From an uncultured Francisellaceae bacterium (lineage in GTDB: Bacteria; Pseudomonadota; Gammaproteobacteria; UBA6186; Azoamicaceae), in the NCBI GenBank assembly GCA_903907935.1, contig CAIVQA010000053.1:176-64175 (forward strand): a stretch of 64,000 nucleotides of DNA, read 5' to 3'. The notes beneath the pieces are model-generated. The model saw only the letters and a list, made by a program, of their open reading frames with translations. It was not told the origin of the DNA and made no database searches. A program made the translations under genes and the position numbers. Shown one piece after another: positions 16,734-60,239 of this stretch (the first letter of the stretch is position 1; the number at the start of each line of letters is the position of its first letter).

Positions 16734-16880
16734 TATACTAATCGCACATGAGTTTTCGGTGCTATAAAAAACAAGGAGTGTTGTTTGAGCCTCCTTGGCC
16801 TCTAGTTGCTCTTTGCTTTGCGAAAGGCGAGTTTCACGACTTGTTTTTAGAGCACCGAAAACTCATGTGCGATCAGTATA
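16734..16880 (+). repeat. family-A palindromic intergenic element, short form (copy A1)
   Basis: Left arm: TATACTAATCGCACATGAGTTTTCGGTGCTATAAAAAACAAG. Core: GAGTGTTGTTTGAGCC...GCGAAAGGCGAGTTTCACGA. Right arm: CTTGTTTTTAGAGCACCGAAAACTCATGTGCGATCAGTATA. The 40-45-nt inverted termini were read directly. Confidence 0.9.
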
Positions 16881-16909
16881 TAATTAGCATGCTTTAGGAG
16901 GGAGATAAA

Positions 16910-17113
16910 ATGAATTCTAAATCTGGTATTAAATTATTGCTAATAGTTACTCCTTCTCTCATTTTTGCATATCGTCGTTACAAAGCCATAAACCAGAAAG
17001 AAAAAATCATACCAACTCCAGTTGAAGTTATTGAATTTCCTGAAACTGATAGCGATGTTAGTAGTACGGAGTATGTTGGTAATAACACAACACAAACAAA
17101 ACTATCAATTTAA
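16910..17113 (+). CDS. small hypothetical membrane protein
   Basis: 67-aa ORF preceded by a strong SD (AGGAGGGAG, 5 nt spacer). One hydrophobic segment (IKLLLIVTPSLIFAY). Confidence 0.45.
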   Translation: MNSKSGIKLLLIVTPSLIFAYRRYKAINQKEKIIPTPVEVIEFPETDSDVSSTEYVGNNTTQTKLSI

Positions 17114-17120
17114 ATCAAAC

Positions 17121-17321
17121 TAAGGAACGTGTACTCCATAAGCTGTAACATTTATGGTAAATTGACCAGGTAGTTGAATTAGAAATAACGTGAAAAGTTA
17201 ACCTGGTCAATTTCAAAAAATGTCAGGATAGACATTTTTGTCGCACCTCAGCGCGCCCGTAGGGCGAGCGCCAGGATGGCGCGAGACAAAATGTGAAAGC
17301 TTATGGAGTGCACGTTCCTAA
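17121..17321 (+). repeat. family-B palindromic element carrying a nested module C (copy B1)
   Basis: Termini are AAGGAACGTGTACTCCATAAGCT and AGCTTATGGAGTGCACGTTCCT. The inner hairpin is GGTAAATTGACCAGG...CCTGGTCAATTTC. The right arm is interrupted by the GC-rich module at 17215..17287. Confidence 0.85.
17215..17287 (+). repeat. module C (GC-rich nested insert), copy C1 inside B1
   Basis: Sequence AAAAAATGTCAGGATAGACATTTTTGTCGCACC..GGGCGAGCGCCAGGATGGCGCGAGAC. Shares the AAAAATGTC/GACATTTTT and GCGCC-AGGA-TGGCGC hairpins with copies C2-C4. Confidence 0.8.
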
Positions 17322-17725
17322 TTAATTTGATTTTTATTGATCAACTTCATGTTAAGTAAGAGATCTTCTAATTCTATACGATTAGCAAATTGTTCTAATA
17401 GTACCACTATATCTTTAGCAGAAATATTTTTAAATTTATTATATTTAGAATTAAACCTTATAATACTATCTGTAGAATAATTTATTTGTTCAAGTATGTT
17501 TTTTACTGAAACAAAATTTTCTGCATTTTGTTCTAAACACGTAGCAAAAATTCTTAAATGACCAGCACAAGTATAATCTATTAGCAACTGAAAAAAATTA
17601 GATAAGGATATAGAATTATTATTAGCATTAGGCAAAAGTCCTGCTAGACTATTTAATATTACTAGTATTTCTTGGCGCTGTCGCAACCAAGGGTTAACTA
17701 ATTTTTCTACGACATCCGTGTCCAT
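17318..17725 (-). CDS. rsd: Rsd/AlgQ-family regulator of sigma-70
   Basis: 135-aa ORF. LVNPWLRQRQEILVILNSLAG, FFQLLIDYTCAGHLRIFA and RIELEDLLL align with E. coli Rsd (LVDRWLHVRKHLLVAYYNLVG, LVDYLSAGHFSIYE, RFVLEDKLI). The stop codon lies in the B1 terminus. Confidence 0.65.
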   Translation of the reverse strand: MDTDVVEKLVNPWLRQRQEILVILNSLAGLLPNANNNSISLSNFFQLLIDYTCAGHLRIFATCLEQNAENFVSVKNILEQINYSTDSIIRFNSKYNKFKNISAKDIVVLLEQFANRIELEDLLLNMKLINKNQIN

Positions 17726-17959
17726 ATTTATACTGTAGTTTACAATCCAACGAATAACGTGTAGCTAAACTATTTTTTATTTTGTGAGACATTTCTGCAT
17801 TATGTGTAAGCAAATAGCCCGAATTATATAACTCTTTGTTTTTTATGATTATTTTTAGTAAACCTTTTAAGCTCTATAAGTTGTTTTTTAATAAAATACT
17901 GATATCCTAAAGATACTTAGTTAAAGGGTAATGGGAAGTTGTGTGCTAAGGATGGCAAT

Positions 17960-58194: not shown

Positions 58195-58434
58195 ATTTGT
58201 ATTTTAGTTTAAATTTCTACATAATACCTAAAAATATGAAAATTTTTTAGTAGACATACTAAATTTGGTTCTTGCTTTTTTATTTTAAAAAATAAATAAT
58301 AAGATAATTGACTTTAACATTTAGTTATTACAAAATTAAGAGCACTCAATACGAGTAGATGCCTGTACTGATTTTTAAACTAAGACTCATATACAATTAG
58401 CATAAAATAAAAAAACTTTTTAAGGATATATTCT

Positions 58435-58767
58435 ATGGCTCATCTAGCCGAAATTTCTGAACAGTCATTTGATCAAGAAGTTTTAAAGGCAAAAATACCA
58501 GTTTTAGTAGATTTTTTTGCACCATGGTGCGGTCCATGTAGATCTTTAACCCCAGTATTAGAAGAATTAGCGAAAGATTACCAAGATAAAATCAAATTTA
58601 TAAAAATTAATGCAGATGAAAATCAAAAAATTTCTACCGAATTTAATATTCGTTCTATACCAGCTTTAGTACTATTTAATAACGGCGAAATGCTAGCTAC
58701 TAGCTTAGGAGCAATACCAAAATCTAGATTAATAGCTTTTTTAAAAGAACATATACCAACAAACTAA
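58435..58767 (+). CDS. trxA: thioredoxin
   Basis: 110 aa, VLVDFFAPWCGPCR. Confidence 0.96.
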   Translation: MAHLAEISEQSFDQEVLKAKIPVLVDFFAPWCGPCRSLTPVLEELAKDYQDKIKFIKINADENQKISTEFNIRSIPALVLFNNGEMLATSLGAIPKSRLIAFLKEHIPTN

Positions 58768-58823
58768 GGAATTAAAAACTATCCTTCCACCCCCCACATA
58801 TAAGTAAAAATGCGATAAAACAT

Positions 58824-60089
58824 ATGAATCTTACAGAACTCAAACAAAAATCTATTACTGAACTATTAGAAATAGCCAACGAATTAAACATTGATAATGT
58901 TGGCCGCTCCCGTAAGCAAGAAATTATTTTTGCAATCTTAAAATCCCAAGCAAAAAAAGGCGAGGATATCTACGGCAGTGGTGTCTTAGAAATTCTACAA
59001 GATGGTTTTGGATTTTTAAGATCGGTAAATGGTTATTATTCCGCTGGTCCAGACGACATTTATGTATCTCCCAGCCAAATTAGACGGTTTAGTTTAAGAA
59101 CTGGCGATAATATTTACGGTAAAATTCGCCCACCGAAAGAATCAGAAAGGTATTTTGCTTTACTTAAAGTAAATACAATTAACGACGAAGCACCAGAAAT
59201 TGCTAAAAGTAAGATCGCTTTTGAAAACCTTACTCCCTTACATGCAAACGAGCGTTTACGTTTAGAGCTAGGTAATGGTAGTACCGAAGATTTAACCACC
59301 CGTACTATAGAATTAGTCTCTCCTATAGGTAAAGGGCAACGAGCACTATTAGTTTCTCCACCAAAAGCTGGAAAAACCGTAATGTTACAAAATATTGCCC
59401 ATTCAATAGCTATTAATCACCCAGAATGTTACTTAATAGTACTTCTTATTGATGAACGTCCAGAAGAAGTAACCGAAATGGAACGCTCAGTTAAAGGGGA
59501 AGTAATAGCAAGTACTTTTGATGAACCAGCTACTCGTCACGTACAGGTAGCAGAAATGGTTATAGAACGTGCCAAAAGATTAGTTGAACATAAACGTGAT
59601 GTAGTAATTTTATTAGATTCTATAACTAGATTAGCTAGAGCTTACAATACTGTTATTCCACCTTCTGGAAAAGTATTAACAGGTGGTGTTGATGCTAATG
59701 CCTTACAACGTCCTAAAAGGTTTTTTGGTGCAGCTAGAAATGTAGAAGAAGGCGGTAGTTTAACTATAGTAGCTACTGCATTAATAGATACTGGCTCTAA
59801 GATGGACGAAGTAATTTACGAAGAATTCAAGAGTACTGGTAATATGGAATTGCATTTAGATAGAGAAATTGCTGAAAGACGAGTGTACCCTGCAATTAAC
59901 ATCTCTAGATCTGGCACCAGAAGAGAAGAACTATTAGTATCTAGTGGTGAATTACAAAAAATGTGGATCCTAAGAAAGTTATTAAACCCAATGGACAAAG
60001 TAGCTGCAGTAGAATTTTTATTAGAACATCTAAAAGATGCTAAAACTAATGGAGCATTTTTTGAAACCATGAAGAAAGCATCGCAATAA
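58824..60089 (+). CDS. rho: transcription termination factor Rho
   Basis: [24 protein letters not shown], Walker A PPKAGKT and [10 protein letters not shown]. Downstream of trxA, as in many gammaproteobacteria. Confidence 0.97.
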
Positions 60090-60092
60090 TAA

Positions 60093-60239
60093 TATACTGA
60101 TCGCAAATGAGTTTTTGGTACTCTAAAAAACAAGTCGTGAAACTCGCCTTGCGCAGAATAAGAATTAACTAAAATCAAAGAGGCTCAAACAACACTACTT
60201 GTTTTTTAGAGTACCGAAAACTCATTTGTTGAGAGTATA
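60093..60239 (-). repeat. family-A palindromic element, short form (copy A11) filling the rho-sdhA spacer
   Basis: Left terminus TATACTGATCGCAAATGAGTTTTTGGTACTCTAAAAAACAAG; right terminus CTTGTTTTTTAGAGTACCGAAAACTCATTTGTTGAGAGTATA. The outer segments of the two arms differ. Confidence 0.88.

Follow-up and report, generated by a model that had tools for sequence, protein, structure and literature searches.

A dense family of palindromic intergenic repeats with the architecture of Correia elements in an uncultured lake bacterium

Bacterial miniature inverted-repeat transposable elements, or MITEs, measure less than 200 to 400 bp, carry terminal inverted repeats (TIRs) and TA termini, form long stem-loops, and are mostly without an identified transposase (PMC2229807, PMC10969869). 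Here, we analyzed a set of palindromic elements, designated family A, that is densely scattered over a 64,000-nt stretch of DNA from an uncultured Francisellaceae bacterium (GenBank assembly GCA_903907935.1, contig CAIVQA010000053.1, positions 176 to 64,175; this whole stretch is called the window, and all positions are counted from its first nucleotide). Family A is a previously undescribed MITE family of a well-known kind and not a new class of element, and the described system closest to it in architecture is the Correia element (NEMIS, CREE) of Neisseria. Both families are mostly intergenic, often lie right beside genes, and would place long stem-loops in transcripts. Correia elements also reportedly have alternative end types that are combined in several ways and a core that can invert. 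The two systems further resemble each other in size (~100 to 220 bp), in long TIRs that start TA-TA, in having a TA at each end, and in the lack of a transposase of their own (PMC2229807, PMC10969869, PMC2649163), and each exists in a short and a long version distinguished by a single internal block (107 and 155 bp for the Neisseria elements versus ~148 and 220 bp for family A [PMC2229807]). Taken together, the analyses reported here make it probable that family A is a lineage-specific, nonautonomous MITE family of Correia-like architecture that is moved in trans by a transposase binding its identical ends.

A first-pass annotation of the window, made from the sequence alone, had listed 10 full or near-full copies of this element and 3 fragments, and this inventory was borne out (Table 1). 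The arm consensus given at that time was also correct, since the arm motif TGAGTTTTCGGTGCTCTAAAAAACAAG has 16 matches in the window at ≤3 mismatches, relative to 0.00 expected from shuffles. An nhmmer profile built from the window copies, which was used alongside repeat finding and direct reading, recovered all 10 of the full or near-full copies at the coordinates listed by the first-pass annotation. The mini copy at 48024 and the remnants at 28451 and 40097 were confirmed as well. The same profile has no match before 16.7 kb of the window, in agreement with the earlier statement that the first 16.7 kb is free of the element. Although all 10 copies belong to the family, they are less uniform than had been described: those at 28471, 35118, and 38121 are a long form with a 72-nt module; that at 20862 carries a distinct second core type; and the copy previously placed at 35133, albeit real, starts at 35118, is truncated, and is missing one arm. 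Family A accounts for 4.1% of the region 16734-60239 and for 31% of the intergenic DNA there, with 12 of the 32 intergenic gaps being occupied; the window has a GC content of 31% throughout, and its housekeeping genes are densely packed. The placement of the copies was likewise as annotated, in that they are either intergenic or extend over just the final 10 to 34 nt of open reading frames (ORFs), with a total ORF overlap of 109 nt. Pairwise identity among the copies is 73 to 93% (median, 83%), which implies that the expansion of the family was not recent.

Each family A unit is 147 to 223 nt long (short form, ~148 nt; long form, ~220 nt), starts with TATACT, finishes with AGTATA, and has a near-perfect TIR of ~42 bp. 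The arms consist of TA-TACT, some nine variable bases, and then a well-conserved TGAGTTTTCGGTRCTCTAAAAAA followed by CAAG or ATAAT, and they enclose an asymmetric, nonpalindromic core of ~60 nt. Approximately 25 further copies were found at unrelated loci on short contigs of the JGI lake metagenomes Ga0114951 and Ga0209083, which do not overlap the window. Two core types are present, type 1 (GAGTGTTGTTTGAGCC...GGCGAGTTTCACG) and type 2 (GAGCGGTGTTTGAGCCCC...GGGCGAGTTCAGCG), each of which is paired with an inner-arm variant specific to it (CAAG/CTTG or TAAT/ATTA). Two end types are also seen, alpha (TATACT(A/G)ATCGCACATGAG) and beta (TATACTCTCRRYTAATGAG), and these are combined as alpha/alpha, beta/beta, or alpha/beta hybrid ends. 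Hybrid ends are those of nearly all core-type-2 copies, and, relative to the core, both orders of the two ends are seen. This is most simply explained if the core has been flipped or if ends have been exchanged by arm-arm recombination.

The long form is the short form plus a single 72-nt block, module M, whose position and orientation relative to the core are constant. Module M, which is optional in family A, consists of four small GC-rich hairpins, one of which comes as a pair of fully compensated variants (CGTGT/ACACG or CGCAC/GTGCG; three compensated pairs), and the tetranucleotide at the GTAG position of the module varies (GAAG, GTAG, or GCAG). At the other end of the size range, the mini copy at 48024 and the remnant at 40097 are internal deletions.

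The orthologous gaps in related bacteria, which the first-pass annotation had proposed to compare, are empty at two loci. Relatives of the window organism are available at 91 to 95% identity in Rho, and in contigs with the 93% and 95% Rho versions the rho-sdhA gap measures 16 to 18 nt, versus 153 nt in the window, where it contains a 147-nt element. Similarly, the dapF-porin gap is 30 nt long in relatives, relative to 245 nt in the window with a 149-nt element inside it. A profile search of 39 kb of the relatives' DNA identified no family A copy at an E value of ≤10. The MITE-like reading offered in the first-pass annotation therefore holds: the elements are of MITE size, noncoding, bounded by long TIRs, and dispersed at unrelated loci, and their orthologous sites are filled in the window and empty in relatives.

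Within the species, every conspecific contig, across several lake samples, either contains the dapF-porin insertion or ends in the element, and contigs whose sequence is identical to that of the window end within the copy between rho and sdhA. No within-species presence/absence polymorphism was detected, as every bridging contig has the element. Since independent contigs carry the insertions or break inside them, the insertions are real, multicopy, and fixed in the sampled populations. An assembly or binning artifact, whether through chimeric joins or through duplicated adapter-like sequence, would be compatible with the frequent ending of short-read contigs inside the element, yet its probability is negligible, given that the same insertions are spanned, at identical spacing, by independent assemblies of different samples (aD7DGafi, L042, L045, and 3mHTPvXH), that the copies differ by 7 to 27%, that their flanks are coherent genes, and that such breaks are expected of a true multicopy element. 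Short-read contigs of the organism that are identical to the window (L007, L008, L043, L044, L046, and L047; ENA) end inside family A copies, making the repeat one of the main reasons for the fragmented assembly of this genome. Knowledge of family A should thus help to finish or bin this genome, since the repeats break short-read assemblies.

The termini of the elements bear on how they were inserted. All family A ends read TA-TA(C/T)T whatever the flank, and the flanks are AT rich without a further motif. A TA target-site duplication is plausible, although in a genome of 31% GC the TA could equally be part of the element.

We favor a model in which family A spread through the AT-rich intergenic spacers of an uncultured lake organism, which is placed as gammaproteobacterium-like on the basis of its best NCBIfam models and its gene order. 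A transposase encoded elsewhere in the genome would recognize the identical ends and move copies in trans, probably inserting them, in the manner of Correia, RUP, and IS630-type elements, at TA dinucleotides. The inverted arms would then recombine, flipping the core and shuffling the two end types, and internal deletions would give rise to mini copies. A DNA-level process, either replication template switching at quasipalindromes or selection for equal transposase-binding ends, may keep the two arms of a copy identical.

A transposase gene was sought around the copies. No insertion sequence (IS)-type transposase is located next to a family A copy, either in the window or on ~20 metagenome contigs, and no IS was found on a conspecific contig that reaches 10 kb past the left end of the window, where recA-alaS-lysC-csrA-mla genes are located. 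The earlier claim that no transposase is associated with the elements stands with one qualification: an Rpn/YhgA-like PD-(D/E)XK "Transposase_31" gene (6262-7239, minus strand; Pfam E = 1e-60) is present in the initial 16.7 kb that is free of the element, and its distance to the nearest copy is 9.5 kb. We set this gene aside as a possible partner of family A because neither family A arms nor convincing TIRs flank it.

Several points weigh against the transposition model. No cognate transposase or autonomous element was found within ~110 kb of the organism's DNA, and the level of identity among the copies gives no sign of current activity. In addition, with respect to the TA duplication, the empty sites of the relatives have diverged so far that the boundaries cannot be placed to the base, and all same-species contigs are filled. 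Finally, two features of the elements themselves are not readily accounted for: module M is common to family A and to a second, unrelated family (see below), which a simple "deleted IS" origin leaves unexplained, and some copies carry private variants that are mirrored in both arms, which is unusual for transposase-bound TIRs and needs either an extra homogenizing process or selection for pairing.

The second palindromic family, family B, is represented in the window by two copies (17123-17318 and 30458-30583), whose TIRs of ~22 nt (AGGAACGTGTACTCCATAAGCT... and AGGAACAGGCACCCCTTAA...) differ between the copies and are complementary within each. The copy at 17123 contains module M (17216-17286) as in the family A long forms, whereas the copy at 30458 is without it. 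No solo module M was found outside family A and B elements.

The mirrored variants belong to a broader pattern of arm pairing. Predicted folds of family A elements have energies between -70 and -101 kcal/mol and z scores between -10.6 and -14.3: single copies fold into one long hairpin on either strand (-75.8 kcal/mol, z = -12.9, on the plus strand, for the copy at 41723; -70.6 kcal/mol, z = -14.3, on the minus strand), and the long form reaches -101 kcal/mol. In the consensus fold of 16 aligned copies, which has 45 pairs, 95.1% of the cells are paired, and two-sided changes are found in 18 of the 45 stem pairs, relative to 9.5 ± 1.6 in column shuffles and 4 to 6 when the partner is slid. Complementarity over the outer 19 nt is 14.2 within a copy versus 12.2 between copies (the observed value was reached in 0 of 5,000 permutations), and private variants are mirrored in both arms of the copies at 41723 and 33204 and of three metagenome copies (L022, L031, and L037).

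These data raise the question of whether the elements instead move or persist via a hairpin or cruciform structure, with the pairing itself being selected, and not by DDE transposition through TIR binding. Such elements might be mobilized as single-stranded DNA (ssDNA) by an HUH/Y1 enzyme, in the manner of repetitive extragenic palindromes (REPs) and their REP-associated tyrosine transposases (RAYTs) or of IS200/IS605, or they might be palindromic targets or partners of an IS110/IS1111-type recombinase. The mirrored private variants, the excess of within-copy over between-copy complementarity, and the 18 compensated stem pairs all fit this explanation, as do the four hairpins of module M and their recurrence in family B; there is also a precedent in Coxiella, where MITE/REP palindromes are IS1111 targets (PMC5896051). 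We nevertheless consider it unlikely. Genes of the HUH/RAYT (Y1) or IS110 type are absent from the window and from the flanking contigs, and REPs are 20 to 40 bp long, not 150 to 220 bp. Alpha/beta hybrids with unpaired outer ends are common, which implies that full pairing is not required. Moreover, template-switch correction of quasipalindromes is an established mutational mechanism in bacteria and accounts for mirrored variants without selection (PMC7202029). A broader form of the same idea, in which the elements of families A and B would act as mobile modules dependent on structure, whose hairpin or cruciform is recognized by an ssDNA- or structure-specific enzyme, with cassettes such as module M moving between the palindromic carriers A and B and the RNA stems possibly also controlling operons, appears slightly more doubtful still.

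Transition mismatches between the arms show no strand preference, with 29 being of the G.U type and 33 of the A.C type. Given this near equality, the arm symmetry looks like a property maintained at the level of DNA rather than one selected in the transcript. This result also bears on the possibility that the repeats are primarily cis-acting RNA elements or small-RNA genes that control mRNA stability, processing, termination, or translation. Their predicted folds are very stable and their covariation is strong, several copies abut start codons, and for the copies at 38121 and 60093 the sole Shine-Dalgarno (SD)-like motif of the downstream gene is located in an arm. Single changes in module M also lean toward the G.U type (6, versus 2 of the A.C type), albeit not significantly. 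However, besides the absence of strand bias in the arms, the copies are located among genes in tandem, convergent, and divergent arrangements and in both orientations relative to transcription, and relatives run the same gene pairs with 16- to 30-nt spacers and no element. Promoter-like and terminator-like matches in the elements are at shuffle level, no element was called as a terminator, and the stems are without a canonical U-tail. An Rfam scan of the window at gathering thresholds gave no family A match, and when two elements were scanned by E value, no match had an E value below 0.6. A primary role in RNA control is therefore quite improbable. TTTAGA-16-TAxxxT promoter-like matches in the arms were also considered and set aside, as they are few and at chance level.

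Under the transposition model, effects on operon mRNAs are nonetheless plausible by analogy with Correia elements. In polycistronic mRNAs such as rpmA-obg, murJ-ileS, rho-sdhA, and dapF-porin, a 42-bp double-stranded RNA stem might be cut by RNase III or might mask the ribosome-binding site, and effects could also arise because the SD motifs of obg and sdhA lie buried in the upstream arm. Since ~31% of the intergenic DNA is filled and some of the sites are inside conserved operons (rplU-rpmA-obg, murJ-ileS, and rho-sdhA), the elements could affect core gene expression.

The neighbors of the copies are ordinary genes. In the window, they include a UDG family gene, rsd, dsbB, a porin gene, dapF, recR, nucleotidyl transferase and glycosyltransferase genes, a pilin gene, the PBP1A gene, rplU-rpmA-obg, murJ-ileS-lspA, gspH-like and htrA-like genes, and rho-sdhAB, whereas those on the metagenome contigs include a sigma factor gene, a radA-like gene, lppC, asnB, terC, and dus. 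Some genes end inside the arms, namely the nucleotidyl transferase and glycosyltransferase genes (stop codons in the copy at 33204), the PBP1A gene (last 11 codons), and rpmA (last 4 codons, 38121-38133; L27 is 96 amino acids [aa] long). Because these genes now terminate in element arms, the insertions have replaced native C termini or stop codons.

Table 1. Family A copies and fragments in the window
Coordinates	Strand	Type	Setting and details
16734..16880	+	Short form, core type 1, alpha/alpha ends; nhmmer E = 2.9e-47	UDG family gene (15957-16673, -) on one side; + strand start at 16911 on the other
20862..21008	+	Short form, core type 2 (GAGCGGTGTTTGAGCCCC...GGGCGAGTTCAGCG), beta/alpha hybrid ends	Between convergent genes 20038-20841 (+) and dsbB (21042-21602, -)
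22920..23068	-	Short form, core type 1	Between dapF (23079-23900, -) and porin O/P gene (21592-22833, -)
28451..28468	no strand	Arm fragment TTTAGAGTACCGAAAAC	Abuts the copy at 28471; immediately upstream of recR start codon
28471..28693	-	Long form, core type 1, module M at 28516-28586	Between divergent recR and 28750-29535
33204..33352	+	Short form, core type 1; both arms show the private alpha variant AATCATATA in mirrored form	Arms hold stop codons of both convergent neighbors (32320-33213, +; 33335-34543, -)
35118..35293	-	Truncated long form, module M at 35118-35186, core type 1, single arm at 35247-35293	Contains last 34 nt of PBP1A gene (35260-37383, -) and last 15 nt of pilin gene (34608-35132, +)
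38121..38339	+	Long form, module M at 38225-38296	Within rplU-rpmA-obg operon; covers final 13 nt of rpmA and stops 1 nt short of obg ATG; GGGGAG in right arm is the sole SD-like motif upstream of obg
40097..40132	no strand	Internal-deletion remnant, outer parts of two alpha ends (TATATTAATCGCCCATGAG + TGCAATTAGTATA)	
41723..41870	+	Short form, core type 1; both arms show the private end variant TAGCTCACA in mirrored form	Between codirectional murJ and ileS
47122..47270	-	Short form, core type 1, beta/beta ends	Between divergent genes 46662-47087 (-) and 47298-47558 (+)
48024..48080	no strand	57-nt mini copy, alpha left arm fused to beta outer right end (internal deletion)	Flanked by gspH-like and htrA-like genes that converge
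60093..60239	-	Short form, core type 1, alpha/beta hybrid ends	Occupies the rho-sdhA gap, 3 nt past rho stop and 3 nt before sdhA ATG; sole SD-like motif of sdhA in arm

Other features of the window were recorded along the way. Between a family A and a family B element lie two tandem paralogous genes (28750-29535 and 29575-30366), which share ~71 to 76% nucleotide identity over several blocks and belong to no Pfam family. The sole Rfam match of the window at gathering level is a bacterial small signal recognition particle RNA downstream of dnaX (32175-32269, minus strand; RF00169, 48.4 bits), and no tRNA genes are present in the window. A perfect 79-bp tandem duplication (two copies, 100% identical; 4957-5114) is found at the 5' end of a major facilitator superfamily transporter ORF (4958-6202), and it is probably real and not an assembly error, since the 414-aa product is also called from an independent ENA contig. 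Two minus-strand ORFs without an NCBIfam match might encode secreted effector- or toxin-like proteins: 52129-54570 (813 aa) has a weak Pfam match to Anthrax_toxA (lethal factor-like; E = 4e-7), and 54696-56675 (659 aa) has 84-nt (or 42-nt) internal repeats at 55894-56385. On a metagenome contig, a family A copy adjoins a gene for a eukaryote-like WD40 beta-propeller protein (L015, 1483-2472, minus strand), and a relative (L038) encodes an OTU-domain protein. These two proteins hint at a host-associated, protist-symbiont-like lifestyle.

We found no match between family A and a described family. The 20-nt arm motif has six single chance matches in 185,579 GTDB species genomes, which do not include the source genome, all in unrelated taxa and none in Neisseria; plasmids, phages, and viral contigs contain no family A match; and the MITE literature consulted holds no described family that matches it. 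Single matches in viral contigs and in L013, L014, L020, L021, L024, L029, and L033 were dismissed as chance matches of 20 to 30 nt.

The resemblance to Rickettsia palindromic elements (RPEs) that was suggested in the first-pass annotation extends to the presence of many palindromic copies of ~100 to 150 bp in a low-GC, probably host-associated bacterium. It fails beyond this point, since RPEs have open reading frames and are typically inserted in frame inside genes (PMC10969869), whereas all 16 family A copies examined have stops in all six frames, with no stop-free frame, and none is in frame inside a gene. RUP of Streptococcus pneumoniae and other IS630-derived MITEs are similar to family A in being small and noncoding, with stops in all frames, a TA insertion site, and proposed mobilization in trans (PMC2229807). 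In contrast with RUP, whose TIRs match IS630-Spn1, family A has no known matching IS, and its arms are much longer and nearly perfect.

QMITE1 and QMITE2 of Coxiella burnetii are likewise MITEs of a gammaproteobacterial intracellular lineage, have full and reduced versions, and overlap gene ends (PMC5896051). However, QMITE1 is ~400 bp long, has a 21-bp TIR, and encodes basic peptides, and QMITE2 is ~190 bp long, has TIRs of 23 to 29 bp and direct repeats of 7 to 9 bp, and is an IS1111 target (PMC5896051). These sizes, direct repeats, and coding capacity are unlike those of family A, and a genome scan revealed no sequence similarity. Family A and bacterial interspersed mosaic elements (REP/BIME) are both mosaic, with small GC-rich hairpins (module M) being reused in different contexts (families A and B). 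REPs are 20 to 40 bp long, bear either GTAG or CGTC as a tag, and are associated with RAYT transposases (PMC3733652), whereas the family A unit is 150 to 220 bp long with 42-bp TIRs and a variable GTAG position, and no RAYT was seen in the window.

Even from Correia elements, family A differs in several respects. The two have no sequence relationship; the family A arms are ~42 bp long, versus ~24 to 26 bp; and no integration host factor site is recognized in family A, as WATCAANNNNTTR has no match in the core by eye. RNase III cleavage and promoter activity have been demonstrated for Correia elements, whereas for family A they are inferred only. The picture of what bacterial MITEs are thus stays unchanged, and family A adds to it a well-resolved example of MITE expansion, its host being an uncultured bacterium of fresh water that is probably associated with protists. 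Its mirrored arm variants and the hairpin module common to two families provide a natural data set on the upkeep of perfect long inverted repeats and on the origin of mosaic repeats. Finally, the parallel between family A and Correia elements in end types, an optional internal block, and core inversion, arising as it does in unrelated sequence, points to a convergent design for successful bacterial MITEs.

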